From Syntrophorhabdus sp. (lineage in GTDB: Bacteria > Desulfobacterota > Syntrophorhabdia > Syntrophorhabdales > Syntrophorhabdaceae): DNA of 24,000 bases. This document shows, piece by piece, positions 2,276 through 17,854 of the stretch (the stretch's first letter is position 1; the number at the start of each line of letters is the position of its first letter). The notes beneath the pieces are model-generated. The model did no database searches and had not been told where the DNA came from. It saw only the letters and a program-made list of their open reading frames with translations. The DNA lies in NCBI GenBank assembly GCA_040767905.1, contig JAXGNP010000002.1, positions 428,635-452,634 of the forward strand, in the 5' to 3' direction. The position numbers were made by a program, and so were the translations under genes.

Positions 2276-2406
2276 TTATTCATAGCGAAATCTCAGATGA
2301 AATTACATTATCAGTTTAACATTATTTATTGAACGGTCGTAGGCGAACCAATACGCTGAAACGCTTATGAGCGTATACTTTTGCAATCATCAATAAGGAG
2401 GACCCA

Positions 2407-2625: not shown

Positions 2626-2653
2626 CAATAGCCCTTGATGACGAGATACTATC

Positions 2654-2902: not shown

Positions 2903-2923
2903 ATTCCCTCCTTTATGAGACTT

Positions 2924-3490
2924 TTACCTCTTGTCTGACGTATTGGTTTCAACCCATCTTGCGAAGGCCTGCATGAACTTTGTGACAAATTCCTCGATTG
3001 AATCATTTGCAAGGTTGCCATGCCCATCGAAGAGATTGGCTGCATTACCTACATAGGCCTCAGGCTGCTGCATGGTGGGAATGTTGAGAAACACGAGCGA
3101 CTGTCTGAGATGATGGTTTGCGCCGAATCCGCCTATTGCGCCGGGTGAAACGGTCATTACAGCACCAGGCTTGCCATCCCATACGCTTTTTCCGTAGGGA
3201 CGGGAGCCTACATCGATCGCATTCTTGATCACGGCAGGGATTGAGCGGTTGTATTCAGGCGTTACAAACAAGACACCGTCAAACGGCTTTACCTGTTTTC
3301 TGAAATCTGTCCATACATCAGGAGGCCTTCCCTCATCATCGAGGTCCTGGTCATACAGAGGAAGGGCCCCAATTTCAATGATTTCAAGCTTCAGTGTTTC
3401 CGGTGCATGCGTTGCAAGGGCATTGGCCATTTTGCGGTTATAAGATTCCTTTCGAAGGCTTCCAACAAAGACTGCAATTTTCTTTGCCAT
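2924..3490 (-). CDS. NADPH-dependent FMN reductase (ChrR/YieF-like)
   Basis: The 188-aa product from ATG 3490 (RBS GAAGGAGGAG) reads MAKKIAVFVGSLRKESYNR...VTPEYNRSIPAVIKNAIDVGSRP...HHLRQSLVFLN. It is collinear with, and the same length as, E. coli YieF as I remember it. The track ORF extends to 3682 but that extension has no RBS. Confidence 0.85.
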   Translation of the reverse strand: MAKKIAVFVGSLRKESYNRKMANALATHAPETLKLEIIEIGALPLYDQDLDDEGRPPDVWTDFRKQVKPFDGVLFVTPEYNRSIPAVIKNAIDVGSRPYGKSVWDGKPGAVMTVSPGAIGGFGANHHLRQSLVFLNIPTMQQPEAYVGNAANLFDGHGNLANDSIEEFVTKFMQAFARWVETNTSDKR

Positions 3491-3668
3491 GTGAATGTTC
3501 TCCTCCTTCTTTATATTTATTGGAAAAGTATATGCGATACTGATAAATATTGCGAGATGTTCGTGTCGAAAACGATATAATCCCACAATAAAGATGAATA
3601 GGGTTAAAGGCTTCTTTACCCATCCGTATCCTTCTGCTCTTAAAAAATGGCCATATAAGGTGAAGGTA

Positions 3669-3698
3669 TTGACATTAATCAAGCCATTCAGTTATTAT
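3669..3698 (+). promoter_or_regulatory. Candidate sigma70-type promoter for the reductase/transporter/selB operon
   Basis: TTGACA (3669-3674), an 18-nt spacer, then TATTAT (3693-3698). A second possible -10, TATAAT, lies at 3725-3730. This is sequence pattern only. Confidence 0.4.
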
Positions 3699-3853
3699 AT
3701 CTCTGAAATAAATGAAAGCAATAGTATAATGCGAAGAAAAGAAATTATATTTATTCCTTCAGGCTGAGAAACATATAGGGGGCCCGGGTGGCTTCCCTTT
3801 ATGACCGTGTTCGCAGTTTCTCCGCCGTAATCCCACAATTTATCTCCCGGGAG

Positions 3854-3890
3854 TCCGGCGCGGAAATCCGCGGCCGGATTTTTTATTTTT
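3854..3890 (+). terminator. Intrinsic terminator inside the 5' leader (attenuator), directly abutting the RBS of the first operon gene
   Basis: The stem TCCGGCGCGG (3854-3863) pairs with CCGCGGCCGGA (3868-3878), giving 10 bp with one bulged G and an AAAT loop. It is followed by TTTTTTATTTTT (3879-3890), then GGGAGG (3891-3896) and ATG 3902. Confidence 0.7.
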
Positions 3891-3901
3891 GGGAGGTTTT
3901 C

Positions 3902-5182
3902 ATGTCAGATTACACACAAATGTGGACGGATTTGGGCCTTGATCTTAAGGCTCATGACGCGCTTCTTTCAGTCCTGGGTGGAGCGTATCAGGACATCTTT
4001 CTTTCTCAGAAGAATCGTCCCGAGGGAATGAAGTACTTCGACTTCGTTATGAGCGAAGTTCATGGCCTCAGGATTAAGGAACTCATGGATGCAAAGGCAG
4101 AGGGCCGCATCGTAGTGGGCTCCTATTGTGTTTTTGTGCCGGAGGAACTTATTCTTGCCGTAGATGGTGTTTCAGTTGGCCTCTGTGCCGGTGCAGAATT
4201 TAACTTTGAAGGTGCCGAAGAGGTAGTTCCCAGGAACCTTTGTCCGCTGATTAAATCAGCCTTCGGATTCAAGAGGGGTCTCGTGTGCCCATACGTTGAG
4301 GCGAGCGACATCATAGTCGGTGAGAATACTTGTGACGGCAAGAAAAAAGCCTATGAAGTTCTATCGCCTATGGTTAAGGACCTTTATATTATCGATCTCC
4401 CGCAGATGAAAAGCGAAACTGGTAAGATGCTTCTCAGGGAAGAGTACCGGAAATTCATAGCAAAACTTGAGGGCACAAGCGGAAAGAAGATCACCACTGA
4501 AACTCTGAAGAAAGGTGTAGAGATTACCAATGCAAAGAGAAAAGCTGTGAAGCGACTCGCAGAGCTGCGCAAGGCTGACCCTGCCCCCATTTCAGGTCTT
4601 GATGCTCTCCTCATAAACCAGGTCTTCTTTTACGATGATACGGTTCGATTTACTGCATCTGTAAACGCCCTTTGTGAAGAGCTTGAAGACCGCATTAAAA
4701 AAGGTATTGGCGTCTTCCCGAAGGGCACAACCCGCTTGCTAATTTCAGGATGTCCCATGGCAGTTCCCAACTGGAAGGTACCTTTCCTTGTTGAAACGAG
4801 TGGCGCTGTAATCGTAGGTGAGGAGTCGTGTGTAGGTGAGCGCGGTACGCAATGGCTCACCGAGGGGAAGGGGGATACTGTGGCTGAGCTTCTCGATGAT
4901 ATTACTGAACGATACTTCAAGATAGACTGTGCGGTGTTTACACCCAACCCATCGAGAACTGAACATGTAAGAGAGATGCATGGCAAAACAGGGGCTCAGG
5001 GAGTGATCCATTACAGCCTTCAGTTCTGTCATCCATACATAATCGAGAGCGGTCCTGCTGAGGCAGCACTCGAAAAAGCCAGCATCCCTACGCTGCGTCT
5101 TGAGACGGATTACAGCCAGGAGGATGCAGGCCAACTCAAGACCAGAATTGAGGCATTCCTTGAGAGGATTCAGGGAAAATGA
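3902..5182 (+). CDS. 2-hydroxyacyl-CoA dehydratase / double-cubane-cluster reductase family protein, paralog A
   Basis: 426 aa from ATG 3902 (GGGAGG RBS). Family-typical Cys motifs are GSYCVFVPEE, NLCPLIKSAFGF, ENTCDGKKK, ISGCPM, EESCVGE, IDCAVFTPN and LQFCHPY. It is followed by an activase gene with an ATGA overlap. Confidence 0.8.
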   Translation: MSDYTQMWTDLGLDLKAHDALLSVLGGAYQDIFLSQKNRPEGMKYFDFVMSEVHGLRIKELMDAKAEGRIVVGSYCVFVPEELILAVDGVSVGLCAGAEFNFEGAEEVVPRNLCPLIKSAFGFKRGLVCPYVEASDIIVGENTCDGKKKAYEVLSPMVKDLYIIDLPQMKSETGKMLLREEYRKFIAKLEGTSGKKITTETLKKGVEITNAKRKAVKRLAELRKADPAPISGLDALLINQVFFYDDTVRFTASVNALCEELEDRIKKGIGVFPKGTTRLLISGCPMAVPNWKVPFLVETSGAVIVGEESCVGERGTQWLTEGKGDTVAELLDDITERYFKIDCAVFTPNPSRTEHVREMHGKTGAQGVIHYSLQFCHPYIIESGPAEAALEKASIPTLRLETDYSQEDAGQLKTRIEAFLERIQGK

Positions 5183-5948
5183 GGGCAGCCGGGCTTGATA
5201 TCGGCTCCCGCACCGTGAAGCTTGCTGTCCTTGAAGAGGGCAAGGCAACTCATACGCGGAAAACCTTAACGTCTCACGATCCTTTAGGGGCTGTTCGTGA
5301 GCTTTCCAAGGGAGTTGATTATGATGTCTTAGTGGCTACCGGTTACGGAAGGCATCTTATCAAGGAGCACTTGGATTGCCCTGTCATTAGCGAGATCAAG
5401 GCCTTTGCCCTGGGGGCGAAAGCCATCCATCCGACCTGCAGGGTTATCCTCGATATTGGCGGACAGGACACAAAGGCAATTTGTTTGACGATACCGGTGA
5501 ATTAAGTAAATTCGAAATGAACGATAAGTGTGCTGCCGGCACAGGCCGTTTTCTTGAGATAATGGCTAACGCCCTCAATTATAGCCTCGACGAATTTTCA
5601 AAAGCGGCCTGTACTGCGCAGCGGGCCGAGAAGATCAACAGCATGTGCACAGTATTCGCCGAATCTGAAGTTATCTCTTTAACAGCGCAGGGAGCAAGGC
5701 GGGACGAAGTGGCTCTGGGTATCCACAAGGCTATCGTGAGCAGGTCTATTGCTCTCCTAAAGCGGATTGCCCCTTCCGGGGAAGTACTCTTTGCAGGAGG
5801 GGTAGCACTCAATGAATGCGTTCGTTCGTTGATAGCAGAGGAGCTTAAACGGCCTGTGATCGTTCCGCCCGACCCGCAGATCGTTGGAGCCCTTGGGGCT
5901 GCCCTTCAAGCGACCAGGTATTACGATAACATGGGGAGGATTACATGA
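5179..5948 (+). pseudogene. BcrAD/BadFG/HgdC-type ATPase activase (archerase), interrupted by a 1-nt frameshift near 5480
   Basis: The ORFs 5179-5505 (MRAAGLDIGSRTVKLAV...ILDIGGQDTKAI) and 5481-5948 (LFDDTGELSKFEMNDKCAAGTGRFLE...SMCTVFAESEV...FAGGVALN...PQIVGALGAA) together make one collinear activase. Both cluster-bridging Cys motifs are present. The frames join if one base is added in the TTT run 5480-5482. Confidence 0.85.
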
Positions 5949-7108
5949 ATAGAATATTGGAGCCTCTTATTGACGACCAATACACGGGAGAGCCGCCTTC
6001 CAAGCGAGTCCTGGCGTATCTACAGGCACAAAGGTCACAGGGGGCGAAAATTGTGGGGACCTACTGTGGCTATGCACCCATAGAGGTCATCCGGGCCCTC
6101 GACCTTGTGCCTGCGACCCTCTGCGCCTTCTCGAACGCCACAATAGAGGCCGCGGAAGCAATCCTCCCTGCGAACCTGTGCCCCCTCATTAAGTCAAGCT
6201 ACGGATTTATCGTAACGGATACCTGTCCCTTTTTCGGAATTTCTGATGCCGTGATCGCTGAGACGACGTGCGATGGAAAAAAGAAAATGTTCGAGCTTAT
6301 TGGTGATTATAAACCTTTGCACGTCATGGATCTGCCTCAGCTCCCTGATGAACCGGAAGCGCTTGAGAACTGGACAACGATGATCCACAAGCTGAAGGAA
6401 TTTCTCGAACGTATTTTCGAGCGTACCATTACTGACGACAGAATTGAACAAGCCATTCGAGACTCTAATGAGAAGGTTCGGAAAATGAATCAGGTTTTCG
6501 ACTATGTTGCGCTGGATCCTCCGCTGGTGGGATGGCAAGAGCTCTACGACATATTTTTTCTCGCACAGAGCGCTCGGGGGTCAGAAATGGTCCCTCTTTT
6601 CGATAGTATAATCAACAAGCTTGAGAGGAGGAAAAAAGATGGTTATGTCTACGGCCCGTCAGGGGCTCCCAGGGTGATGGTGACGGGCTGTCCCGTGTCG
6701 GGCGACGCATCAAAAGTGTTTCACGCTATCGAAGAGGCAGGAGGTGTAATTGTTGCCCTTGATATCTGCTCAGGCATGAAGCCTTATATGTCTCTTATAG
6801 AAGAAGGGACGGGCGAACCAATCCGGACACTCGCAGCTCATTATTTGCAGATACCGTGCTCATGCATGACGCCAAACGATCGCCGGCTTGTTGAAATGAC
6901 TAAGATTATCGAAAGGTTTAAGCCCGACGCTGTAGTAGATGTGATCTTACAGGCGTGCCATTCCTATAACATCGAGTCATTCAAGGTGGGCGAGCATATT
7001 CAGGAAAAACATGGTCTGTCTTTCCTTAAAATTGTGACCGACTATTCTCAAAGCGATGTAGGTCAAATAAGAACAAGGGTGGAAGCACTACTGGAGATAT
7101 GTAAATGA
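5945..7108 (+). CDS. 2-hydroxyacyl-CoA dehydratase / double-cubane-cluster reductase family protein, paralog B
   Basis: 387 aa. Motifs are GTYCGYAP, NLCPLIKSSYGF, TDTCPFF, ETTCDGKKKMFEL, VTGCPV, ICSGMK, IPCSCMTPN and LQACHSYN. RBS GGGGAGG. ATGA overlap with the activase stop. Confidence 0.8.
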   Translation: MNRILEPLIDDQYTGEPPSKRVLAYLQAQRSQGAKIVGTYCGYAPIEVIRALDLVPATLCAFSNATIEAAEAILPANLCPLIKSSYGFIVTDTCPFFGISDAVIAETTCDGKKKMFELIGDYKPLHVMDLPQLPDEPEALENWTTMIHKLKEFLERIFERTITDDRIEQAIRDSNEKVRKMNQVFDYVALDPPLVGWQELYDIFFLAQSARGSEMVPLFDSIINKLERRKKDGYVYGPSGAPRVMVTGCPVSGDASKVFHAIEEAGGVIVALDICSGMKPYMSLIEEGTGEPIRTLAAHYLQIPCSCMTPNDRRLVEMTKIIERFKPDAVVDVILQACHSYNIESFKVGEHIQEKHGLSFLKIVTDYSQSDVGQIRTRVEALLEICK

Positions 7109-7159
7109 GATGACACTGATTGTTTTATAAATATCTTAGAACAGGAGGTAGTAAGACTT

Positions 7160-8272
7160 ATGTTTAGAAATCTGAAGTCGGCTTTGATTACGGTTGTTGG
7201 GTTCGTTATTTTATCGTTCGCTTCCGGTGTTTATGGGGCAGATATTCCCGCCATGAAAGTGGGTTATATTTTTACCACCCACCACACACCATTTATGGTG
7301 GCAGCACAAAAAGGTGAAGCTCTCAAATCCATGGGAGTGTATCTCAAACCGGTTGTCGCCAAGGACAAGTATGAGTTAATAGTAGATGGCAAGCCGATAG
7401 CAACGCTCCAGTTGATTGTGGCAAAAAGCGGAACGGAAACCGCCTCGCTTTTCGCACGAAACCAGCTCGATCTTGCTATGGCTTCTGTTACAGCCATGAT
7501 AGCCGCAATCGACAAAGGGACAGCAATAAAAATACTGAGTCCCCTTCAAACGGAGGGAATGGGTCTTGTTGTGGCAAAAGATTCTCCCCTTGTCAACTGG
7601 GAATCGTTTATGGCCCATATCAAAAAGGCCGGTAAGCCAGTAAAAATAGGATATCACTCTCCCACGAGCGCCCCGAAGATAATCCTTGAAGGGTCGCTGA
7701 AACAGTCAGGGATACGGGTGACTGAAGACCCCAATGATCAGTCGGCCCAGGTCTTGCTTGCCGACCTGAAAGAAACGACGAACTTGATCCCTGCTCTTAC
7801 CAGCAGGCAGGTCGAAGCTGTTGTCGGGCCATCGCCTTTCCCGGAGGTTGCTGTCAGTCGTGGTGTAGGCAAGATTGTGGTGGAGCTCCGCGACCTTCCC
7901 CCCAAGGGGTATTGGCATGATTTTCCCTGCTGTGTCACCGCGGCCACCGATGCAACCATCTCCAAACACCCCCATGTAGTGCAAAAATTCATAGAACTTA
8001 TCGCCAAGACCAACGCATGGTGCAACAAGAACAGACTTGAGGCCGGTACATTAACCGCGGAGTGGATTGGACTTCCCCCTGAATCAGCCCAGGCATCAAC
8101 ATTGGTTTACCTGCCAAAATTCACCGCGCAATGGATGAAAGGCGCCAATGAGTATCTGACCATTCTCGATCAAATGGGAAAATTTACCGGAAAAATGAAA
8201 GGAAAAACAATCAACGATGTAAGGCCGGTTCTATTCGACATGCAATTTATTGACAGAGTGAAAATACAATGA
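7160..8272 (+). CDS. ABC transporter substrate-binding protein, NitT/TauT (NMT1/SsuA-like) family, secreted
   Basis: 370 aa. Signal peptide MFRNLKSALITVVGFVILSFASGVYG/AD. Overall SsuA/TauA-like layout, followed by a cognate permease and ATPase. Contains a vicinal Cys pair (HDFPCCVTAA). RBS AGGAGG. Confidence 0.75.
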   Translation: MFRNLKSALITVVGFVILSFASGVYGADIPAMKVGYIFTTHHTPFMVAAQKGEALKSMGVYLKPVVAKDKYELIVDGKPIATLQLIVAKSGTETASLFARNQLDLAMASVTAMIAAIDKGTAIKILSPLQTEGMGLVVAKDSPLVNWESFMAHIKKAGKPVKIGYHSPTSAPKIILEGSLKQSGIRVTEDPNDQSAQVLLADLKETTNLIPALTSRQVEAVVGPSPFPEVAVSRGVGKIVVELRDLPPKGYWHDFPCCVTAATDATISKHPHVVQKFIELIAKTNAWCNKNRLEAGTLTAEWIGLPPESAQASTLVYLPKFTAQWMKGANEYLTILDQMGKFTGKMKGKTINDVRPVLFDMQFIDRVKIQ

Positions 8273-9111
8273 ATGTAAGAAATATACTCTTAAGGACAGG
8301 TGCTTATATAACTGTACCGGTCCTTTTCTTAGCTTTTTGGGCCTTCATGGCATGGCACATGAAAAATGAGGTCATCCTGCCCAGTGTCGGGCAGGTGGCC
8401 CAGCTTTTCATGGAACCAACCAAAAGCCTTATAGCCATGGGCCCTCTCACCACAAATGTTGCCGTTAGTCTTGTGCGCGTTCTGTCGGGTTATCTCCTTG
8501 CGGTTTGCCTCGCCGTGCCGCTGGGGATTCTTATGGGATATTACGGGACGGTCTTCAGGCTCATGAATGGTTTCCTTGCCATGTTCAGGCCAATCCCCCC
8601 TCTTGCATGGGTGCCATTGGTGCTTGCCTGGTTTGGAATTACGAGCTTTGCAACACTTTTTGGCGTGGAAAGGGGGTATGCGTATCTTTATCTCAATAAC
8701 CTGAAGTTCTCTATGATTTTTATTATCTTCATAGGGGCTTTCTATCCTATTTTGACGAGTGCGATACACGGGGTCATGAGCGTGCGGAATACCCTTTTGG
8801 ACTCAGCAAGGGTTCTTGGAGCCAGCGAGTGGGACATTTTTCGGAAAATTCTCTTGCCGGCATCTTCTCCTTCAATTGTTAACGGTATGAGGATCGGCCT
8901 GGGAGTAGCATGGATGTGCCTTGTATCAGCAGAAATGCTTCCCGGGAGTCTCTCCGGTGTGGGCTATCTTATTACCCACGCGTACACGCTCGCACGAACA
9001 GATATTGTCATAGCAGGCATGATCAGTATTGGAGTCATAGGCGCTTTCCTGGACCTATTCTTCCGACTCGTCGAAGATCGCAAGTTCGTCTGGACGAGAT
9101 TGACCCGATGA
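8269..9111 (+). CDS. ABC transporter permease, NitT/TauT family
   Basis: 280 aa and multi-TM. The EAA-loop region is DSARVLGASEWDIFRKILLPASSPSIVNGMRIGLG. ATGA overlap with the SBP stop. Confidence 0.85.
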   Translation: MNVRNILLRTGAYITVPVLFLAFWAFMAWHMKNEVILPSVGQVAQLFMEPTKSLIAMGPLTTNVAVSLVRVLSGYLLAVCLAVPLGILMGYYGTVFRLMNGFLAMFRPIPPLAWVPLVLAWFGITSFATLFGVERGYAYLYLNNLKFSMIFIIFIGAFYPILTSAIHGVMSVRNTLLDSARVLGASEWDIFRKILLPASSPSIVNGMRIGLGVAWMCLVSAEMLPGSLSGVGYLITHAYTLARTDIVIAGMISIGVIGAFLDLFFRLVEDRKFVWTRLTR

Positions 9112-9923
9112 AGGAGTATCCCATACTCCGCGTCCAGTCCCTTCGCAAGTCCTTTAGGACAAACGACGGAGGAGCCCTTGAGGCAGTGGCAGAGGTCAGC
9201 TTCGAAATTCCCGAAAATGACTTTGTGTGCATCGTGGGACCATCGGGATGCGGAAAGTCAACATTGCTGAGAATGATCGCAGGCCTCGAGACAATCAGTA
9301 CCGGAGAAATAGACTACCGGGGAGAGATAGTCTCACGGCCGCGGAAAGAAATCGGTATGGTCTTCCAGGAATACTCCCTTCTGCCGTGGAGAAATGTGAT
9401 TGACAATGTCGCACTTGGTCCTGAATTCTCGGGTGTGCCGCTAAATGTGCGGAAAGAGAAAGCCATGGAGTACCTGCGCCTTGTCGGAATGGAAGCTTTT
9501 TCACAGTCTTTTCCCCATGAACTTTCGGGAGGCATGAGACAACGTGTTGCCATTGTCAGGGCCCTTGCCAATGACCCGGACGTGCTTCTCATGGATGAAC
9601 CTTTTGGCGCACTCGATGCCCATACAAGAATCCTGCTGCAAAAAGAATTGCTTCGTATATGGGAACACCACCGTAAGACGATCCTCTTCGTAACCCACGG
9701 TGTCGATGAGGCTATATATCTTGCGGACCGCATTATGGTTATGTCTGCACGACCTGGCAAGATTCTCGAAATCATTGATGTGGACATGGCCCGACCGAGA
9801 CACCGGGGAGACCCTGCCTATGGCCAACTGGCAGATCAGATTCTCGCAATCCTCGAGCAGGAGGCCGTATTTTCCTTTGGTAATGGAACTGAAAGACGAT
9901 GCCTGAATCATTTCAATGAATAG
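9108..9923 (+). CDS. ABC transporter ATP-binding protein, NitT/TauT family
   Basis: 271 aa from ATG 9108 (ATGA overlap with the permease stop). Walker A GPSGCGKST, signature LSGGMRQR, Walker B LLMDEPFGALD. The track's start at 8910 lies inside the permease gene. Confidence 0.9.
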   Translation: MKEYPILRVQSLRKSFRTNDGGALEAVAEVSFEIPENDFVCIVGPSGCGKSTLLRMIAGLETISTGEIDYRGEIVSRPRKEIGMVFQEYSLLPWRNVIDNVALGPEFSGVPLNVRKEKAMEYLRLVGMEAFSQSFPHELSGGMRQRVAIVRALANDPDVLLMDEPFGALDAHTRILLQKELLRIWEHHRKTILFVTHGVDEAIYLADRIMVMSARPGKILEIIDVDMARPRHRGDPAYGQLADQILAILEQEAVFSFGNGTERRCLNHFNE

Positions 9924-11853: not shown

Positions 11854-12058
11854 ATTGATCAATGCGAAAGGGCTTGGTTGTGCCGAGCCGGTAATTTTGG
11901 CAAAAAAAGCACTTGATTCACTGGATGAAATCACCATTGTGGTTAATGAGGCTACAGCCATGGAAAACCTCAGGACTTTAGGGACTTACTTAGGATGTTC
12001 GGTAAAGGTTACCACAGAGGCTAATTGCATCCACACGGTTTACTTCAGAAAAAAATAA
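11846..12058 (+). CDS. YedF/TusA(SirA)-like small sulfur/selenium carrier protein, variant CAEP motif
   Basis: 70 aa from ATG 11846 (AAGGAG 7 nt upstream), overlapping the selB stop by 8 nt. The sequence INAKGLGCAEPVILAKKAL...ITIVVNEATAMENLRTL matches the YedF N-domain pattern (DarGl.CP.PV...vdn..a.eNv) but has CAEP instead of CPxP. Confidence 0.7.
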   Translation: MSELINAKGLGCAEPVILAKKALDSLDEITIVVNEATAMENLRTLGTYLGCSVKVTTEANCIHTVYFRKK

Positions 12059-12255
12059 AGGGTAAATGTTACTATGAATCTGCTCACTAATGTTCATCTA
12101 TTGCAGTTCATCATATGTTTTGCCCTTAAACATGATTACTACCTGAAACTCAGCCTGAAAAAGTCTGGTCAAGATAAAGCTACAAGTAAAGGTATTAAAC
12201 GTTCAATAGATAGAGGTTTTTTATAATTTGTTTGTTTATCATAGAAATAATCGAT

Positions 12256-12284
12256 TTGACTTATATGGTTAATGAATTTATATT
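12256..12284 (+). promoter_or_regulatory. Candidate sigma70-type promoter for the yedE-selD block
   Basis: TTGACT (12256-12261), a 17-nt spacer, then TATATT (12279-12284). It lies in a 268-bp AT-rich spacer, 43 nt upstream of the yedE ATG. Confidence 0.45.
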
Positions 12285-12326
12285 CAATACGGTTTTTTTC
12301 TTAAAAAAAATACGAAGGAAGACCTT

Positions 12327-13421
12327 ATGCCAAAGATCGCACAGTTTTTTTCGAGTCGTTGGGGAATCATTTTAGTAGGCGTTATTATTGGGGTTTTTGC
12401 CCAGCTCTTGCAGAAGTGGGGCAACCCGGCAAACATGGGCATCTGCGTAGCGTGCTTCGAACGGGACATTGCAGGCGCTTTGGGAATCCATCGGGCTGCT
12501 GTGGTCCAATACATGCGGCCGGAAATCATCGGTTTTGTCCTTGGTTCGCTGATTGCCGCTTACGCGTTTAAGGAGTTCAGATCGCGGGTTGGGTCTGCTC
12601 CAATCGTTCGTTTTATCCTCGGCACCTTCGCCATGATTGGGGCACTGGTCTTTTTAGGGTGCCCGTGGCGGGCTGCACTTCGTCTGGCTGGCGGTGACTG
12701 GAACGCAATCTTTGGTCTCCTCGGGCTTATCGGTGGGATATGGGTTGGCACATTCTTTCTCAAAGCGGGTTTCAACCTTGGTCGGACACAGGCTACCCAT
12801 ACCTCGGTTGGGTGGTTATTGCCGTTGACAATGCTGGGTTTTCTCATTCTTATGTTTATCTTCCCCCAAGTGCAGGGACAGGACAAGAGTGGCATCCTGT
12901 TTTACAGCGTCAAAGGCCCCGGCTCTATGCACGCCCCATTGATCGTTTCACTGGTTATTGGACTTTTTATCGGATTCCTTGCACAGAGAAGCCGGTTCTG
13001 CACCATGGGAGCAATTAGGGATCTCATCCTGTTCAGACAACCCCATCTCCTTACCGGGTTCGTCGCACTTGTTGTGGCTGCCTTTGTTACTAATTTGATT
13101 CTGGGACAGTTTCACCCCGGCTTCGTTAAGCAACCCGTGGCCCATACAATGGGGCTCTGGAATTTCGGCGGCATGGTCCTGGCAGGTTTAGCTTTTGCCC
13201 TGGCAGGAGGCTGCCCTGGACGGCAGCTGTTTTTAGCCGGAGAGGGCGACGGGGATGCGGCGGTGTTTGTTTTTGGGATGATCTTCGGAGCAGGTATTTC
13301 GCATAACTTCGGGTTGGCCAGCTCGCCGGATGGTGTCGGGCCATACGGGATTCCCGCTGTAATCATAGGTCTTCTGGTTTGCCTTTTCATCGGGTTTACG
13401 ATGAGGAAACAAGTTGCCTAA
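12327..13421 (+). CDS. yedE: YedE-family selenium metabolism membrane protein (putative Se transporter)
   Basis: 364 aa and polytopic. It has the two family-typical half-repeat Cys motifs, NMGICVACFERDIAGALG and SRFCTMGAIRDL. It sits in the classic yedE-yedF arrangement. Confidence 0.85.
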   Translation: MPKIAQFFSSRWGIILVGVIIGVFAQLLQKWGNPANMGICVACFERDIAGALGIHRAAVVQYMRPEIIGFVLGSLIAAYAFKEFRSRVGSAPIVRFILGTFAMIGALVFLGCPWRAALRLAGGDWNAIFGLLGLIGGIWVGTFFLKAGFNLGRTQATHTSVGWLLPLTMLGFLILMFIFPQVQGQDKSGILFYSVKGPGSMHAPLIVSLVIGLFIGFLAQRSRFCTMGAIRDLILFRQPHLLTGFVALVVAAFVTNLILGQFHPGFVKQPVAHTMGLWNFGGMVLAGLAFALAGGCPGRQLFLAGEGDGDAAVFVFGMIFGAGISHNFGLASSPDGVGPYGIPAVIIGLLVCLFIGFTMRKQVA

Positions 13422-13448
13422 AGGTTATTTAAAGAAGGAGGAATTACA

Positions 13449-13667
13449 ATGAGTGTAATCGTCGATGCCAGAGGGCTATCATGTCCGCAACCAGTTCTTT
13501 TGACCGTGAACGAAATTAAAAAGGTTGTAAAGGGTGAAATCGTTGTTCTTGTTGACACGGACACATCCAAGGAGAATGTTTCCCGCATAGCAGTTTCGCA
13601 GGGGTGGACGCTAAAAGGGGTCGAGCCGGATGGAACCGGATATCGCATTAGTATTGCAAAGGATTGA
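13449..13667 (+). CDS. yedF: YedF / TusA-like selenium metabolism protein (SirA domain only)
   Basis: 72 aa. VDARGLSCPQPVLLT carries the canonical CPxP motif, followed by VVLVDTDTSKENVSRIA. RBS GAAGGAGG. It lies immediately downstream of yedE. Confidence 0.8.
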   Translation: MSVIVDARGLSCPQPVLLTVNEIKKVVKGEIVVLVDTDTSKENVSRIAVSQGWTLKGVEPDGTGYRISIAKD

Positions 13668-13670
13668 TTC

Positions 13671-14225
13671 ATGTCTTTGTTGGGGTTTTTAAAAAAAAAT
13701 CAGAAGGAACTTGAGCTCAGGGAAGATATAGACCGCGGCTTTATGGTCTTTGAAAATACCAGCGAAGTGATTCAGGCTGATAACCTTCTGAAAAAAAATG
13801 GTTGGGAGATTCGGGTTATGGGGCCACCGCCGGAGATTCGAACAGGGTGTGACCTTGTCATCGAGTTCCCGCTCATTGAAGAGCTGAAAATCATAAAGAT
13901 TTTGCAGGATGCCGAAATACCGCCCCTTCAGGCAGTACCTGTTACCGGTCCCTTATTACAACCGGTAGGCCTCTTCAAGGTCAAAGATTTTGGCAGGTAT
14001 CTGATGGTACGGGCAGCCAACATGAAACTGACCGTTGACACGGAGTCACTCATCATTGTGAACATTTCCGGAGGCGGTTGTCCGGATGTTCCCTACCTTG
14101 CCGAGGAGATGGTAGGCAAGCATCTCAATGAAGCTCCGAGCCCGCGGGAGATCGGACATACCCTGTGTGGCTATGCCCTTCAATTGGCCTACGAAGAGGT
14201 AAAACAACGATGCTTGCAGTCGTAG
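13671..14225 (+). CDS. DUF3343 (putative Se/S carrier) domain protein with an unassigned C-terminal Cys-containing domain
   Basis: 184 aa. The N-terminal roughly 75 aa (FMVFENTSEVIQADNLLKKNGWEIRVMGPPPEIRTGCDLVIEF) fit the DUF3343 pattern (ferredoxin-like, P.P..i...CG.). I do not recognise the C-terminal roughly 100 aa (NISGGGCPDVPYLAEEMVG...HTLCGYALQLA). Confidence 0.65.
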   Translation: MSLLGFLKKNQKELELREDIDRGFMVFENTSEVIQADNLLKKNGWEIRVMGPPPEIRTGCDLVIEFPLIEELKIIKILQDAEIPPLQAVPVTGPLLQPVGLFKVKDFGRYLMVRAANMKLTVDTESLIIVNISGGGCPDVPYLAEEMVGKHLNEAPSPREIGHTLCGYALQLAYEEVKQRCLQS

Positions 14226-15073
14226 GCACCGTCCCCGAGAATGATTTTCCATTACTTGCGGGAAAAGTCACCCTTGAAAATGGAAATATTGTCATTCAGG
14301 GGAAAAGGGTTAATATAAACCGTGGCACGCCAGCATTGCTCGCTGCTGCTGCCAAAGCTTCGGAGACATTGCAGCAGGAAGAGCCTTTTGGGTATTTGAT
14401 AGGGGATATCGGTCGCGGCGATGGCAGTAAAAAACTGTATCAGTATCTCGTAGAGCACCTCAAGAAAACCAGTTTTCATACCATGGCTTTTCATTATCTG
14501 CAACCCCTTGTCGATTGGCACAACCGAATTCTTGCAATCATCACAAAAATGATTCCGAAGCCGGTTCTCATCGCCGATGCGGGATCCATGTATATGGCGA
14601 AAATGAGTGGGAAATCAGCGGCCTATGATCTTTTCACGCCGGACATTGGAGAGCTTGCATTTCTTGCGGACGAAGCGGCCCCTCACCCGTTTTACACGCG
14701 AGGGTTTATTTTGCACGAAGAACAGCATGCACCCGATCTTATTGCCAGGGCATACGCCCACAGGAATGCCTCAGAGTACCTTCTGGTTAAGGGTAGTAAG
14801 GATTATATAGTGAACAGTGAAGGCGTACAGGACATTGTCGAAAGCCCCGTTGAAGAGTCAATGGAAGCCATAGGCGGAACCGGCGATACCCTTACTGGTA
14901 TTGTCGCTGCGTTGTGTGCAGCCGGCATAAGCGTGAAGGAAGCGGCTATCCTGGCAGCGCGGACAAATCGATTGGCAGGATCGTATGCGCATCCAACCCC
15001 TGCAACCCAGGTGATGGAAATAATCCGATATATACCCAAAGCGCTAAACGTTTGCATGAGAAAAGATCAATGA
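14210..15073 (+). CDS. NnrD/YjeF_C-like carbohydrate-kinase-fold (ribokinase superfamily) protein, function unknown
   Basis: 287 aa from ATG 14210. The sequences VLIADAGSMYMA...LFTPDIGELAFLA...YLLVKGSKDYIV...EAIGGTGDTLTGIVAALCAAG parallel the NAD(P)HX dehydratase layout (DADal...TPH.gE...LKG...GsGDvLaG). It overlaps the upstream gene by 16 nt and shares an ATGA with selD. Confidence 0.6.
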   Translation: MLAVVGTVPENDFPLLAGKVTLENGNIVIQGKRVNINRGTPALLAAAAKASETLQQEEPFGYLIGDIGRGDGSKKLYQYLVEHLKKTSFHTMAFHYLQPLVDWHNRILAIITKMIPKPVLIADAGSMYMAKMSGKSAAYDLFTPDIGELAFLADEAAPHPFYTRGFILHEEQHAPDLIARAYAHRNASEYLLVKGSKDYIVNSEGVQDIVESPVEESMEAIGGTGDTLTGIVAALCAAGISVKEAAILAARTNRLAGSYAHPTPATQVMEIIRYIPKALNVCMRKDQ

Positions 15074-16134
15074 AAGAAAAGAAGACTCCACGACTAACAG
15101 AAACGGTTAAGGGCGCCGGCTGAGCATCGAAGCTGGGTCCGGGCGACCTAGATAAGGCTCTGTGCGGTCTTTCCCTGATGAATGATCCAAACCTGATTGT
15201 TGGAATGGATAGGGCCGATGACGCCGGGGTATACAAAATCTCGGAAGATCTTGCGCTTATTCAGACGGTTGATTTTTTTACCCCCATTGTAGATGATCCT
15301 TATATGTTTGGCCAGATTGCGGCTACCAACTCGCTCAGCGATGTCTACGCCATGGGAGGTCAACCTTTGACAGCAATGAATATCGTCTGTTTTCCCATAA
15401 AGACGATGGACATATCAGTATTAAGGGAGATCCTGCGAGGAGGACTCGATAAGATGAAGGAGGCAGGAGTTACCCTGGCGGGAGGGCATAGCGTCGAAGA
15501 TTCAGAGCTGAAGTACGGGCTTTCCGTTACTGGAATCATCCACCCTTCCCGGGTGCTGACCAATGTAGGGGCAGAACCAGGGGATAAGCTGATCTTAACC
15601 AAACCGCTTGGCACCGGAATCATCAATACCGCTATAAAGGCTGGAATGGTAGATGAAGGGCTGGCCGAAAAAGTCATACGGTCTATGGCTCACCTGAATA
15701 GATCCGCTGCAGAAGTAGTGCAGGAGGTAGGTGCCCGAGCCTGCACCGATGTCACCGGATTTGGCCTTCTGGGTCATGCCTTTGAAATGATTCAGGGAAC
15801 AGGGAGGGGTATCATCATCTACGCATCCCAGGTCCCTTTATTTCAGGAGGCTGTTAGCTTTGCAGAAATGGGCCTGGTTCCTGGAGGTGCCTATCGCAAC
15901 AGAGATTTCAGGATTCATCAGGTTGATATTGATGCTGATGTATCACGGTATCTTTCGGACATCTTTTTTGATCCTCAAACATCCGGGGGTCTGCTCATTG
16001 CAGTACCAGAGGAAAAGGCAAATAGAATGGTAAAAAGATTAAAGGAAAAGGGCATAGATGAAGCGGCAATTATTGGAGAGATCACAGATGAACCAAAAGA
16101 AAGAATTATCGTTCGGCTTTCCGGGAAAAAATAA
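15070..16134 (+). CDS. selD: Selenide, water dikinase SelD (selenophosphate synthetase), selenocysteine-containing form (UGA at 15121-15123 = Sec18)
   Basis: Reading from ATG 15070 gives [45 protein letters not shown].... This reproduces the conserved SelD N-terminal GAG(U/C).K.GP.DL motif. The track ORF (15178-16134) is only the part after the UGA. The rest is collinear AIR-synthase-like SelD (DDAGVYKI, DFFTPIVDDPYMFG, GGHSVED). Confidence 0.9.
15122..15160 (+). promoter_or_regulatory. SECIS-like stem-loop immediately 3' of the selD UGA
   Basis: The upper stem CTGGGTC (15133-15139) pairs with GACCTAG (15145-15151), giving 7 bp with one G-U. The apical loop is CGGGC, placing G residues about 20 nt after the UGA. 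A possible lower stem is GAGC (15122-15125) with GCTC (15157-15160). Folded by eye only. Confidence 0.55.
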
Positions 16135-16238
16135 ATAACCAAAATTATACGACAACTCAAAGAGCACAAATCGCAACCTTTATTATAGCGTGCAAGGTCA
16201 GATTCGAGGAGAAAATACAGAAGGATACACCGTAAGAC

Positions 16239-17384
16239 ATGAAGCTACTGATTAACGACAAATACACGAACAATCCAAATGACAGGGTGTTGGATTCCGT
16301 TATCTATAAGAGAAATATCGGGGCGCCCGTTATCGGCATGTACTGTGGGTATGCGCCTGTTGAGTTAGTCCGGGCGATGGGGGCAGTGCCGATTTTCTTG
16401 TGTTCTTTTTCCAGAAAGACCATCCCGGCAGCTGAGGCGGTCCTTCCCTCCAATCTTTGTCCTCTCATTAAATCGAGCTATGGATTCATCATTACAGATA
16501 CCTGTCCTTTTTACGCCCTATCTCAGGCAATCATCGGCGAGACAACTTGTGACGGCAAGAAGAAGATGTTCGAACTGATCAGTCACATCAAACCTACCCA
16601 TATCATGGACCTTCCACAACTCCCCGACGAAAAGGAAGCCCTTGAAAACTGGACGATCATGGTTCGTAAGTTAAAAAATTGGCTTGAGAAAACCTTTGAA
16701 ACACAGATCACCGATGGACTAATCGAGACAGAGATTAAAGATACAAATCGGAAGAACCGTCTTATGAATGATTTTTTCAAGTATGCTGCCCATTTTCCTC
16801 CAATAATCAGTTGGAGTGAACTGTACGATATAATTGGGCTGGAACTCGTGTCGAATAGCGATGAGTTACAGAGACTCCTGGAAGATATCACGCAAAAACT
16901 GGATGAGCGTATCATTGAGGGAGAATACATTGGTACAATAGAATCACCGAGGGTTATTGTAAGTGGATGCCCGGTTGGGGGTGATGCATCGAAGATTTTC
17001 AGGGTTATCGAAGAAGCTGGCGGGGCAGTGGTGGCTATAGAGGCGTGCAGCGGTATGAAGGGGTATACAATAAAAATTGAAGAAGATACCGGCGACCCCC
17101 TTTCTGCTCTTGCAAAAGCTTATCTACAAATACCATGCTCTTGCATGACGCCGAATCAACGGCGTTTCGATGCATTGGATGAATTAATTGCGCGGTTTAA
17201 ACCCGATGCAGTTATTGATGTCATTCTTCAGGCTTGTCATTCGTATAATATAGAATCCTACAGAATCGAACATCACGTGCACGAAAAACATAATTTACCA
17301 TTTTTAAAGGTGGAAACAGACTTCACGGAAAGTGACCGCGCAATGATCAAAACCCGCGTGCAAGCCCTCTTTGAAAGCATTTGA
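16239..17384 (+). CDS. 2-hydroxyacyl-CoA dehydratase / double-cubane-cluster reductase family protein, paralog C
   Basis: 381 aa. It is collinear with paralog B from the first residues, and more than half of the positions I aligned by eye are identical. Shared motifs are GMYCGYAP, NLCPLIKSSYGF, TDTCPFY, ETTCDGKKKMFEL, VSGCPV, ACSGMK, IPCSCMTPN and LQACHSYN. Confidence 0.8.
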   Translation: MKLLINDKYTNNPNDRVLDSVIYKRNIGAPVIGMYCGYAPVELVRAMGAVPIFLCSFSRKTIPAAEAVLPSNLCPLIKSSYGFIITDTCPFYALSQAIIGETTCDGKKKMFELISHIKPTHIMDLPQLPDEKEALENWTIMVRKLKNWLEKTFETQITDGLIETEIKDTNRKNRLMNDFFKYAAHFPPIISWSELYDIIGLELVSNSDELQRLLEDITQKLDERIIEGEYIGTIESPRVIVSGCPVGGDASKIFRVIEEAGGAVVAIEACSGMKGYTIKIEEDTGDPLSALAKAYLQIPCSCMTPNQRRFDALDELIARFKPDAVIDVILQACHSYNIESYRIEHHVHEKHNLPFLKVETDFTESDRAMIKTRVQALFESI

Positions 17385-17413
17385 GAGCTGCATAAATCGC
17401 TTACCCATCTGGT

Positions 17414-17854
17414 TTATTTTAACTCTTCTAAATCTGTGAAGATATCTGAAAACTGATGGATGTCCTTCCTTATACCATCAATGGTCAACAAGGGATAATG
17501 ATTGCCGTCTCCCGTTTGTCCGGTCGTGATAGTAATTTCCTTTGACCCTTCACCTTGCTCGGCTAAAATGATGGCGCGAATGGCCATCGGCGATAATCCC
17601 TCAACGGGTTCATCATCGATGATTAATCCACAACCGCCCCCAAGAGCGACTTTTTGCAAATGCACCTTGTTATCCTCCCTGTCGATGTAAAGAGTTCCCT
17701 CTTTTCCAACAAGGCTAAAGCTACGGCCACAATGATTGGACTTGCATGTTATTGAAAATTCAATAGCATTTTCTGTGACGAGATAGTTCGTGGTAACGTC
17801 AGCCCCATCCTCGTTGTCACGCTGTGCATCAAATTTAGTAATTGAAATAACCAC
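17414..17854 (-). CDS. Hypothetical protein (146 aa), no family recognised
   Basis: GTG start 17854 with GGAGG 6 nt upstream. Acidic protein with CKSNHC and GGGCG segments. Convergent with paralog C, with a 29-nt gap. Confidence 0.5.
   Translation of the reverse strand: MVISITKFDAQRDNEDGADVTTNYLVTENAIEFSITCKSNHCGRSFSLVGKEGTLYIDREDNKVHLQKVALGGGCGLIIDDEPVEGLSPMAIRAIILAEQGEGSKEITITTGQTGDGNHYPLLTIDGIRKDIHQFSDIFTDLEELK

Follow-up and report, generated by a model that had tools for sequence, protein, structure and literature searches.

Why should three double-cubane reductase genes, their activase and an ABC importer be chained to genes for selenium use, as they are in the window, by which we mean the whole 24,000-nucleotide stretch of DNA analyzed here? 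We tentatively read the locus as an island for selenium acquisition and activation, in which the reductases bring selenium to selenide for SelD, and we put the chances of this reading a little short of even. The double-cubane enzymes probably work in selenium metabolism, because their pairing with selenium genes inside selenium operons recurs in many anaerobes. That they supply selenide to SelD is plausible from gene content and is one among several directions that the link could take.

Fourteen genes on the + strand (3902-17384) form two chained operons. Their coordinates and ATG starts are as given in the preliminary description, and so are the start/stop overlaps (5179/5182, 5945/5948, 8269/8272, 9108/9111, 9916/9923 and 11846/11853), the 51-nt gap between the second reductase gene and the binding-protein gene, the gene order, and the AT-rich spacer between the operons. 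This spacer (12059..12326, +) is 268 bp long, with 29% GC vs 47% for the locus, and neither an Rfam family nor a tRNA was found in it. A promoter scan recovered within it the sequence TTGACT-17-TATATT (12256-12284, +), earlier described as the second operon’s own promoter; a further site, TTGACA-18-TATTAT (3669..3698, +; 11/12 matches, by consensus only), lies upstream of operon 1 in a 411-bp intergenic region of 39% GC. Both sites are only suggestive, since promoter-type matches across the whole region are no commoner than in shuffled sequence.

Paralog A (3902..5182, +; 426 aa; Pfam HGD-D) is of the long class I type, whereas paralogs B (5945..7108, +; 387 aa) and C (16239..17384, +; 381 aa), which are 58% identical, belong to the short class II. 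All three exceed the 350-bit cutoff of the NCBI double-cubane reductase model NF040772 (A 451, B 445 and C 440 bits), and all fall short of the models for acyl-CoA dehydratases and benzoyl-CoA reductases; these identities were rejected at 57-95 bits for HadC (cutoff 700) and 33-81 bits for BzdN and BcrC (cutoffs >420). Kinship to heteromeric dehydratases beside CoA-transferase genes, which the preliminary description had named as a finding that would speak against its inference, is likewise not borne out by gene context: no CoA-transferase or acyl-CoA gene is recurrent in 80 reductase neighborhoods. The closest solved structure is the double-cubane protein (DCCP) of C. hydrogenoformans, on which paralog A aligns end to end (PDB 7yyl/6eno; 459 bits, residues 3-423 on 3-421) with a seven-Cys motif at C76, C95, C114, C144, C310, C343 and C376. 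The alignment of paralog B with 7yyl (229 bits) begins only at chain residue 63, which indicates that it lacks the N-terminal extension. Nine common Cys columns, previously noted by eye, are invariant in an alignment of A, B, C and 15 homologues. Class I enzymes have narrow channels whereas class II enzymes are open, and reduction of the double-cubane cluster requires the ATPase and ATP, dithionite or Ti(III)-citrate alone being insufficient (PMC7317905). The activities on record are with acetylene and similar artificial substrates (PMC7317905), which counts against selenium as the natural substrate.

The gene for the BcrAD/BadFG/HgdC-type ATP-dependent activase, or archerase (5179..5948, +), had been taken for one intact ORF, but the loss of 1 nt near 5487-5488 breaks it into two pieces, 5179-5505 and 5481-5948. 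The window reads TTTGACGAT where three sibling contigs (97.6-99.6% identical) read TTTGAACGAT and encode an intact activase of 256 aa. Both halves match Pfam BcrAD_BadFG and TIGR00241, and once the frame is repaired the two cluster-type Cys contexts (MNDKCAAGTG and NSMCTVFAESE) are seen to be retained. That this frameshifted gene is the sole activase in the assembly counts against a function in selenium activation.

The selenium genes begin within the first operon, where selB, for the selenocysteine-specific elongation factor (9916..11853, +; TIGR00475 340 bits, cutoff 242; SelB winged-helix domains present), overlaps both the ATPase stop and the start of a gene for a TusA-domain Cys carrier of about 70 aa (11846..12058, +; GLGCAEP; Pfam TusA 34.7 bits, cutoff 28.6). 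The second operon opens with yedE, encoding a putative selenium transporter (12327..13421, +; TIGR04112 491 bits, cutoff 200); an identity as the thiosulfate-uptake protein TsuA was rejected at 36-43 bits vs cutoffs of 400-645. There follow a 72-aa TusA/YedF-like Cys carrier (13449..13667, +; CPQP; Pfam TusA 61 bits), a 184-aa DUF3343 (Se/S carrier)-DUF8182 fusion (13671..14225, +; Pfam Se_S_carrier 83.8 bits; PF26554), a divergent ribokinase-fold (Carb_kinase/YjeF-C-like) protein (14210..15073, +; Pfam Carb_kinase 52.6 bits) and the selenide water dikinase gene selD (15070..16134, +; TIGR00476 369 bits), whose start shares 4 nt with the end of the gene before it. SelD contains selenocysteine, as had been proposed, encoded by an in-frame TGA (15121-15123) within GAG-U-ASK. 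Two earlier names hold in part: the genes called YedF (about 70-72 aa) pass Pfam TusA but contain this domain only and fail the full-length YedF model TIGR03527, and the protein called NnrD-like passes Pfam Carb_kinase but not the NCBIfam NAD(P)HX-dehydratase model yjeF_cterm (44 vs 130 bits).

TusA, the YedE/YeeE superfamily, DUF3343 (the “Se/S carrier”) and the cysteine desulfurases all include sulfur-handling members, which counts against selenium as the cargo and would suit a module that traffics sulfur (zero-valent sulfur, persulfide or a thiosulfate-type species), the sel genes being adjacent only through shared carrier families. In YeeE/YeeD thiosulfate uptake, for instance, the TusA-type Cys protein would receive the chalcogen. 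The split YedE1E2 is an importer of zero-valent sulfur (PMC10812762). We nonetheless consider sulfur trafficking quite improbable here: the operons contain selD and selB, the subfamilies TIGR04112, TIGR03527 (in neighboring loci) and NF040786 were defined by SelD association, and the double-cubane family is nearly confined to SelD-containing genomes (bioRxiv 10.1101/2022.07.06.499078).

The importer is composed of an NMT1/SsuA-type substrate-binding protein (7160..8272, +; Pfam NMT1_2), a permease (8269..9111, +) and an ATPase (9108..9923, +; Pfam ABC_tran). The binding protein, for which no named NCBIfam family passed, carries an FPCCV vicinal Cys pair and a THH motif, in which C257, C258, H41 and H42 do not vary across 20 homologues. 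The closest named families to the permease and ATPase are SaoP (156 bits, cutoff 295) and SaoA (249 bits, cutoff 360) from the SAO locus, where SAO stands for selenocysteine-assisted organometallic, and the CC pair aligns with that of SaoX at the homologous position. Where SaoP has WMSVIUAEF the permease has WMCLVSAEM, its Cys standing three residues (one helical turn) before the gating selenocysteine, and this Cys is kept in 4/4 homologues of the window type. Such soft-ligand chemistry, in the CC pair and the permease Cys, counts for selenium acquisition. The same likeness to SaoP, SaoA and SaoX also favors a possible, if somewhat unlikely, explanation in which the reductase, activase and importer together resemble SAO in function, degrading or detoxifying a compound taken up from outside that is refractory or organometal(loid), with an indirect selenium link through a common anaerobic niche, common regulation or reliance on selenoproteins elsewhere. 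True SAO cassettes adjoin double-cubane genes in loci L015, L026, L037, L039 and L064, no selenium gene lies near most importer-plus-reductase operons, and reduction of an imported organometallic compound was proposed by Haft and Gwadz (bioRxiv 10.1101/2022.07.06.499078). Such a module would, however, leave unexplained the importer-free selB/YedF/YedE operons with a class I reductase and activase (L175), the YedF and DUF3343 genes directly downstream of class II reductases and the presence at 10 loci of the selenium-associated LysR regulator, and the window lacks SaoB, SaoL (MerB-like), SaoE (the efflux pump), SaoC, SaoT, SaoD and other SAO-specific genes.

The link to selenium rests chiefly on recurrence in other genomes. 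Among 80 reductase loci from one-genome-per-species contigs, each from another species, 30 have a selenium marker (YedF, YedE, DUF3343, Sec-lyase-like, LysR or SelD) within 10 kb: full-length YedF occurs at 16, DUF3343 at 14, Sec-lyase-like TIGR01977 at 13, the selenium-associated LysR regulator NF040786 at 10, YedE at 9 and SelD at 3, and 14 YedF loci correspond to p ~1e-13 under an assumed chance rate of 1%. Counts of this kind overstate the number of independent events, since the scans retained the loci closest to the query and related species have synteny in common by descent. Anchoring on the binding protein placed a double-cubane gene in 44 of the 54 loci that reach 8 kb, and where it is adjacent it is of class II in 46/49 cases. 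From the ribokinase-like gene, always the fourth in the YedE cassette, the set of reductase, activase, selB and YedE was repeated in two of three loci: L174 has the YedE cassette, two reductases, activase, SelB, SelD and YedF, and L175 has reductase A, activase, SelB, YedF and the YedE cassette. The DUF3343-DUF8182 fusion recurs in all three (L173-L175). The same parts appear with changed order and orientation in a Clostridia MAG (L042) as well as in Syntrophus buswellii DM-2 (L013), and in several lineages a class II reductase is followed ~30-90 nt on by YedF, whose stop overlaps the DUF3343 start.

About 60% of the reductase loci and ~70-80% of the importer-plus-reductase loci, including a gut Bilophila-like five-gene operon, are without a selenium marker in the examined DNA, which counts against the selenium reading and is what chance adjacency of an unrelated anaerobic module would allow; beyond this, chance is a general possibility only. 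Three independent anchors (reductase, binding protein and kinase-like protein) each recover the pairing, which makes chance very unlikely indeed, and it spans Thermodesulfobacteriota, Spirochaetota, Bacillota and Eggerthellaceae with varying gene order and orientation. Close and distant homologues alike are strongly associated with YedF, YedE, DUF3343, Sec-lyase-like, LysR_Sec, SelD and SelB genes, and the proposed functional tie of the reductase and importer genes to the selenium genes thus survives this census as well as the check for dehydratase kinship.

The preliminary description, which knew of no described link between this reductase family and selenium, was mistaken on this point. Such a link was raised in a 2022 preprint, in which 955/970 double-cubane proteins are in SelD-containing genomes (Haft and Gwadz, bioRxiv 10.1101/2022.07.06.499078), and by others: STRING partners of YedE, YedF and DUF3343 (Slackia table) include a 2-hydroxyglutaryl-CoA dehydratase subunit and activase (Lin et al., 2015, PMC5322559), and a 2023 preprint has a double-cubane protein “provisionally linked to selenium metabolism” (PMC10418091). 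What the present analysis adds is the link of a dedicated, cysteine-lined importer to class II enzymes, together with the fixed YedE cassette.

The dependence could also run the other way, the reductases consuming SelD-derived selenium in their cofactor, e.g., a selenium-bridged [8Fe-9S] analogue supplied through the neighboring transport and carrier genes. The presence of selD and carrier genes at the same loci fits this equally well, and in L173 the YedE cassette adjoins an XDH-type enzyme. Selenium-dependent molybdenum hydroxylases are a precedent for SelD-dependent cofactors. Haft and Gwadz treat such use as a formal possibility for the SelD co-occurrence (bioRxiv 10.1101/2022.07.06.499078). 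We regard it as unlikely, given that the crystallized enzyme, produced in E. coli, is active with a sulfido bridge (PMC7317905), that translational chaining to selB, which serves Sec decoding only and is so placed also in L174 and L175, has no obvious reason under it, and that no recognized maturase gene is recurrent beside the reductases.

If the locus does serve selenium acquisition and activation, selenium would enter by two routes, the YedE channel and the ABC importer with its conserved cysteines in binding protein and permease, and would be handled on cysteine carriers, namely the two TusA-type proteins and DUF3343. The double-cubane reductases would bring it to selenide, all of them charged with very low-potential electrons by the one ATP-hydrolyzing activase. 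Enzyme A, long and with a closed channel, may act on small inorganic selenium species, and the short, open enzymes B and C on a bulkier substrate, either the ABC-imported compound or carrier-protein-bound selenium. SelD would then convert selenide to selenophosphate, and SelB would decode UGA. We infer that selenium is part of the species carried and reduced, that the reductase product is selenide and that this selenide flows to SelD. The Se(0)/HSe- couple, calculated from standard potentials, lies at ~ -0.72 V under standard conditions at pH 7 and, with selenide at micromolar to nanomolar levels, at ~ -0.45 to -0.55 V, a range in which ATP-boosted electrons would make sense for selenide formation. 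Against this, E. coli and mammals have thiol-dependent selenide routes without a low-potential reductase.

The family identities, the operon architecture and the recurrent co-location of these families in several phyla are shown by the present data. Several known systems resemble the locus in part. The HgdAB and HadBC dehydratases and class I benzoyl-CoA reductases share its superfamily (Pfam HGD-D) and type of ATP-dependent activase, but the window is without a dehydratase-type alpha/beta pair. The DCCP/DCCP-R system of C. hydrogenoformans (PDB 6ENO, 7YYL; NF040772) has the seven-Cys motif of paralog A and an adjacent archerase-type ATPase, and paralogs B and C, which also have its motif, match the short YjiM-like class II. 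The characterized DCCP has no assigned physiological substrate and the descriptions of it consulted here do not mention a selenium, transporter or carrier context, whereas the window has three paralogs to one activase, joined in operons with the importer genes, selB, selD and the YedE cassette. YeeE/YeeD (TsuA/TsuB) and YedE1E2 likewise pair a YedE/YeeE-superfamily membrane protein with a TusA-type Cys protein, but have no low-potential reductase component. In the set of Lin et al. (2015, PMC5322559), YedE (TIGR04112), TusA-type YedF-like proteins and DUF3343 adjoin selD; dehydratase-family genes and an ABC importer are undiscussed there, the main text uses neither “carbohydrate kinase” nor “ABC”, and it was the present analysis that identified the fixed cassette of YedE, TusA, DUF3343-DUF8182 and ribokinase-like protein. 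The SAO locus (Haft and Gwadz, 2022) has an importer of the same branch with an SsuA/NMT1-type binding protein, and both systems are restricted to selenium-using anaerobes. In contrast to SAO, all three window transporter subunits fall under the SAO cutoffs and are without Sec, the permease having its Cys instead, and their partners are selB, selD, YedE, TusA and DUF3343.

The locus comprises fourteen + strand genes in two putative operons. The first runs from the double-cubane paralog A (3902-5182) through an activase (5179-5948), paralog B (5945-7108), a substrate-binding protein (SBP; 7160-8272), a permease (8269-9111), an ATPase (9108-9923) and selB (9916-11853) to a TusA-domain protein (11846-12058). 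The second runs from yedE (12327-13421) through a second TusA/YedF-like gene (13449-13667), a DUF3343-DUF8182 fusion (13671-14225), a ribokinase-fold gene whose end overlaps the start of selD (14210-15073) and selD itself (15070-16134, TGA at 15121-15123) to paralog C (16239-17384). Every start/stop overlap claimed for the first operon in the preliminary description is present, the sole gap being 51 nt, and so is the 268-bp AT-rich spacer between the operons (29% GC vs 47% for the locus) with its TTGACT-17-TATATT element at 12256-12284. Promoter and terminator matches are no commoner than in shuffled sequence, so the operon boundaries are taken from gene spacing alone. Rfam and tRNA scans of the entire window found no non-coding RNA. 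The spacer also holds a 50-aa ORF (12074-12226) that the source record lists among its genes; it has no family match and has homologues in the same species only (contigs L001 and L002).

The flanking genes (response regulator, cysE-like, PC4, glutaredoxin, FMN reductase, isocitrate/isopropylmalate dehydrogenase, M24 peptidase and two minus-strand ORFs) are not related to the locus. The two minus-strand ORFs lie directly downstream of paralog C (17414-17854, 146 aa; 18243-18860, 205 aa); neither matches Pfam or NCBIfam, and none of the fetched loci has a homologue. The glutaredoxin and NADPH-dependent FMN reductase (2654-3490, minus strand, divergent from A) were considered as an electron donor module and rejected; they are conserved in near-identical relatives only and are probably outside the system.

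A profile-HMM check bore out the assignment of the paralogs to the double-cubane family, with A (450.9 bits), B (444.9 bits) and C (439.6 bits) all passing the curated whole-protein cutoff of 350 bits of NCBIfam NF040772 (‘double-cubane-cluster-containing anaerobic reductase’). The nine shared cysteine columns first picked out by eye are invariant across A, B, C and 15 homologues (alignment A1) and include the seven-Cys cluster motif, all seven cysteines of which are invariant in the 18 sequences. The published motif around and ligating the [8Fe-9S] cluster is CX19CX18-19CX29CX166-170CX32-34CX32C; the spacings in A are x18, x18, x29, x165, x32 and x32, with x29 as the fifth in B and C, and they fit the published motif within a tolerance of 1-3 residues rather than by its literal numbers. 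Paralog A and the crystallised C. hydrogenoformans protein align from one end to the other (459 bits), whereas the alignments of B (229 bits) and C begin at residue 63 of that protein, the N-terminal extension being missing from both in alignment A1. From this difference we assign A to class I and B and C to class II of the double-cubane proteins. A review from the Dobbek group separates these classes, describes narrow channels fit for small molecules in the long class I and the short class II as open, names acetylene as an artificial substrate, and notes that reduction of the double-cubane cluster needs its ATPase and ATP, with dithionite or Ti(III)-citrate alone failing (PMC7317905). Two other family assignments were tried and rejected: 2-hydroxyacyl-CoA dehydratase (HgdAB, HadBC), with 57-95 bits against 700 for HadC and 30 against 750 for HadB, and class I benzoyl-CoA reductase (Bcr/Bzd), whose cutoffs exceed 420 and whose top scores here are 81 (BzdN) and 47 bits (BcrC). 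Across the neighbourhoods of 80 reductase loci, CoA-transferase and acyl-CoA gene families do not recur. A check for selenocysteine found no in-frame TGA at the Cys columns in about 190 double-cubane genes or segments from 166 loci, the few stops met being alignment edges or frameshifts.

The archerase-type ATPase partner of these enzymes (DCCP-R, HgdC-like) is encoded between A and B. It had been described as one gene, but the window copy is broken into two frames (5179-5505 and 5481-5948) by a 1-nt deletion: the site (5484-5492) reads TTTGACGAT in the window against TTTGAACGAT in the near-identical sibling contigs L002-L004 (n=3, 97.6-99.6% identical), which encode an intact 256-aa activase. 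Once the base is put back, the activase reads through in full and has the two cluster-type Cys contexts. The lesion is an assembly error or strain-specific, and not a property of the system. A frameshift was also met in an uncultured Bilophila contig (L087, 8133-9267), where a pair of overlapping ORFs, out of frame with each other, makes up the double-cubane gene and full-length YedF comes next; this is probably an assembly error.

Among the selenium genes, SelD (369 bits vs a cutoff of 125), SelB (340 vs 242) and YedE (491 vs 200) all pass their equivalog models, and the DUF3343 domain passes Se_S_carrier PF11823 (83.8 bits vs 25). The two small genes at first called YedF-like and yedF both pass Pfam TusA only; as YedF they fall short, with 43 and 49 bits against 110 for the full-length model TIGR03527 and 28 against 79 for PRK11018, the 78-aa form. 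Full-length YedF beside homologous reductases in other loci scores 206 bits. The gene labelled NnrD-like reaches 43.9 bits against 129.85 for TIGR00196 (NAD(P)HX dehydratase, YjeF C-terminal domain) and passes only the fold-level Pfam Carb_kinase; we call it ribokinase-like. As for a SECIS element, shuffled sequence folds as well as the 58 nt around and downstream of the selD UGA (15118-15175; z = 0.16), and folding energy alone thus gives no support to a hairpin.

YedE, TusA, the DUF3343-DUF8182 fusion and the ribokinase-like gene form a fixed four-gene cassette of near-identical spacing, which lies at 12327-15073 in the window, at ~6119-8885 in the loci L173, L174 and L175, at 15016-17750 in Syntrophus buswellii DM-2 (L013) and at 1798-4526 in a Clostridia MAG (L042). 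DUF8182 and the ribokinase-like protein fit no named NCBIfam family, and the term ‘carbohydrate kinase’ is absent from a 2015 selenium-gene survey (PMC5322559). In L173 (1-2795 and 11475-16835), which has no double-cubane gene, the cassette stands beside a three-subunit XDH-type molybdenum hydroxylase, XdhC, rhodanese, NifU, radical SAM and DUF364/DUF4213 genes, and the context may be that of a selenium-dependent molybdenum hydroxylase.

We followed these genes into other genomes from three anchors. Scanning one-genome-per-species contigs with alignment A1, we kept the 80 reductase loci most similar to the query, 39-66% identical to B; every neighbouring ORF was clustered unsupervised, identities were taken from NCBIfam and final counts from tblastn. 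By clustering, the recurrent neighbours are the activase (46/80), an ABC ATPase (22/80), full-length YedF (TIGR03527), an ABC permease, YedE, small DUF3343 proteins and SAO (selenocysteine-assisted organometallic) cassette genes, together with a cysteine-desulfurase or Sec-lyase-like protein (TIGR01977, with SclA as second-best match) and a ‘selenium metabolism-associated LysR’ regulator (LysR_Sec; NF040786, 299 bits). By tblastn, full-length YedF accompanies 16/80 reductase loci, the Sec-lyase-like gene 13/80, small DUF3343 11/80, LysR_Sec 10/80, YedE 9/80, and fused DUF3343, SelD and the ribokinase-like gene 3/80 each; any of these markers is found at 30 of the 80, and most homologous loci have no adjacent selenium genes. 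The marker-bearing loci belong to Spirochaetota, Thermodesulfobacteriota, Bacillota and Eggerthellaceae. For the 14 YedF loci of the clustering count, p would be ~1e-13 at an assumed chance rate of 1%, with related species not being independent. One order recurs in L018, L022, L007 and L017: LysR_Sec, a divergent class I reductase, a class II reductase, YedF, DUF3343 and the Sec-lyase-like gene, the YedF stop being overlapped by the DUF3343 start. The full LysR-to-Sec-lyase operon, with full-length YedF, occupies 1065-8204 in L018 (Smithella MAG) and 7365-13233 in L022 (Deltaproteobacteria MAG).

The second anchor, a metagenome scan with a 20-sequence SBP alignment, returned 80 loci, 54 of them at least 8 kb long; among these 54, a double-cubane gene is present in 44 and the activase in 39. 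A reductase beside the transporter is class II in 46/49 cases. An uncultured Bilophila contig carries the SBP, permease and ATPase together with activase, reductase and YedF; in Desulfovibrio aerotolerans a reductase is found with SBP, permease and ATPase; and another contig (SBP cluster of 769 members) holds the five-gene operon by itself. From the third anchor, the ribokinase-like gene, the YedE cassette was found in 3/3 loci examined. L174 joins it to a class I reductase, FmdE, a second reductase, activase, SelB, SelD and YedF, and L175 to a class I reductase, activase, SelB and YedF. The FmdE-domain gene of L174 (10714-11484) has the class I double-cubane gene on one side and the class II gene on the other. 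The complete genome of the cultured S. buswellii DM-2 (NZ_CP175563.1, ~3,070,498-3,091,634) has SBP, permease, ATPase, B, C, A, activase and DUF3343, adjoined on the opposite strand by the ribokinase-like gene, the DUF3343 fusion, TusA and YedE, and these parts recur, ordered differently again, in the Clostridia MAG L042.

The proposed tie between reductases and selenium genes is upheld by this census, in which the association recurs from three anchors with the gene order rearranged. The window is one case of a recurrent, rearranging gene association, and such an association argues for selection on function. That an unrelated reductase and importer module merely sits beside the selenium genes, the alternative raised at the outset, is disfavoured by recurrence from three anchors, in several phyla and in rearranged order, and we regard adjacency by chance as very improbable indeed. 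The analysis shows to which families the genes belong, how the operons are built and that the co-location is conserved, and it is highly probable, in our judgement, that the double-cubane and importer genes are functionally linked to selenium metabolism.

The preliminary description held that no link between this reductase family and selenium had been described, and in this it was mistaken, for the association is already published as a statistical observation and a hypothesis. Haft and Gwadz, who built NF040772, found 955/970 of its members in SelD-containing genomes and a double-cubane gene within 5 kb of 40% of SAO loci, and suggested a role in processing selenium compounds or, formally, a selenium-bridged cluster (bioRxiv 10.1101/2022.07.06.499078). 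The latter possibility, in which the reductases consume selenium for a selenium-bridged cofactor, agrees with the SelD co-occurrence profile; the crystallised enzyme, however, is active with a sulfido bridge, and the selB linkage would be left without explanation, and we consider such a role improbable. The STRING partners of YedE, YedF, DUF3343 and LysR in Slackia include a ‘dehydratase subunit’ and an ‘activase’, named in a table only (Lin et al. 2015, PMC5322559), and a 2023 preprint draws DCCP (double-cubane cluster protein) and DCCP-R among clustered selenium genes and describes the link as provisional (PMC10418091). In the literature we found no biochemical or genetic test of the link, and no functional data on YjiM or on double-cubane proteins with selenium substrates. 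Each of the component families is already known; new here are a dedicated cysteine-lined importer family in near-obligate pairing with class II enzymes, the different partners of class I and class II enzymes, a fixed YedE cassette that includes a DUF3343-DUF8182 fusion and a ribokinase-like gene, and the way in which reductase and activase genes are chained to selB and selD.

Substrate, product and direction of flow, which we infer, would make the locus a selenium acquisition and activation island, a tentative reading that we hold to fall slightly short of evenly balanced. Selenium would be taken up via YedE and the cysteine-lined ABC importer, carried on TusA-type and DUF3343 cysteine carriers, reduced to selenide by the double-cubane enzymes in an ATP-driven step and activated by SelD, with selB co-expressed as a member of the same utilisation regulon. 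The class structure (PMC7317905) and the neighbourhood split suggest a division of labour in which class I would act on small inorganic selenium species and class II on the imported compound or carrier-bound selenium. A weakness of this mechanism is the majority of homologous loci that have no selenium genes alongside. The Se(0)/HSe- couple, calculated from standard potentials, lies near -0.72 V at pH 7 and at ~-0.5 V at trace selenide, out of the range of ordinary thiol reductants; thiol-based routes to selenide do exist, which counts against the mechanism. We know of no dedicated selenide-generating enzyme in strict anaerobes. According to a 2024 study, no organism is known to have a selenium-specific transporter, and Methanococcus yedE is induced under selenium starvation (PMC11097638). 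Zero-valent sulfur is imported by a YedE1E2 pair via conserved cysteines (PMC10812762), and that the present system handles sulfur instead of selenium seems to us distinctly improbable.

A wider proposal, which we advance with more doubt than the island reading itself, is that the double-cubane enzymes could be the missing selenide-generating step of selenium assimilation in strict anaerobes, supplying SelD by ATP-boosted reduction of zero-valent, carrier-bound or organic selenium, that the cysteine-lined importer could be the first dedicated selenium importer, working by thiol exchange, and that SAO could be reread as a selenium rather than a heavy-metal system. Double-cubane enzymes are structurally characterised, nitrogenase-like and ATP-driven, and their physiological substrate is a standing question; the gene linkage narrows the search to selenium-containing species and points to a candidate importer and carrier relay, and the family would gain a physiological substrate if the proposal is true. 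If it is confirmed, SAO in Clostridioides difficile and C. botulinum would be read differently. The locus makes both the double-cubane substrate and selenium uptake and reduction in anaerobes approachable by experiment in cultured organisms, among them S. buswellii DM-2, with the complete set, and D. aerotolerans; cultured Bilophila may be usable too, the gut locus itself being from an uncultured Bilophila assembly.

The best named matches of the importer are SaoP for the permease and SaoA for the ATPase, and the window transporter falls below every SAO cutoff (SaoP 156 bits vs 295, SaoA 249 vs 360, SaoX 22 vs 300). SaoP from loci with SAO cassettes reads WMSVI-U-AEF, with an in-frame TGA at U in all five recovered (L015, L026, L037, L039, L064), and window-type permeases read WM-C-LVSAEM or W(S/G)CLVGAEM variants. 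Their conserved Cys (motif at 8935-8961 in the window, residues ~223-231) precedes the gating Sec position of SaoP by three residues, or roughly a helical turn; at that position the window permease has Ser. In the 20-sequence alignment the SBP has an invariant FPCCV pair and the likewise invariant motifs TTHHTPF and GYHSPTSAP, and its CC pair aligns with that of SaoX; double-Cys motifs are uncommon in binding proteins (Haft and Gwadz, bioRxiv 10.1101/2022.07.06.499078). Mapping of ligand residues on solved structures was tried and set aside, the nearest PDB entries (NrtA 2G29, 3QSL, 3UN6; E ~1e-5 to 1e-3) being too distant. SBP homologues in L042 (7066-8175) and in a Syntrophomonadaceae MAG (L071, 7816-8928) have an extra HCC where the window has THH and a Cys in place of the window Ala in ASVTA, with up to five Cys across the conserved motifs.

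A path so rich in thiols points to a substrate that is soft and thiophilic, and from its genomic context this would be selenium. Another reading, the SAO-like breakdown of an organometal(loid) or refractory compound taken up by the importer and linked to selenium only indirectly, would also agree with the homology of the importer and with the many operons that have no selenium genes. That explanation, unlikely in our view but to be taken seriously, fits poorly with class I, activase and selB operons that have no importer, and with YedF and DUF3343 directly downstream of reductases. On present sequence comparisons the importer is best placed as a sister system to the SAO importer, outside the named families and tightly bound to class II double-cubane enzymes. 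It differs from the SAO importer in having no selenoproteins, and from the SAO locus as a whole in that SaoL (MerB-like), SaoE, SaoB, SaoC, SaoT and SaoD, genuine copies of which occur in L015, L026, L037, L039 and L064, have no counterpart in the window.
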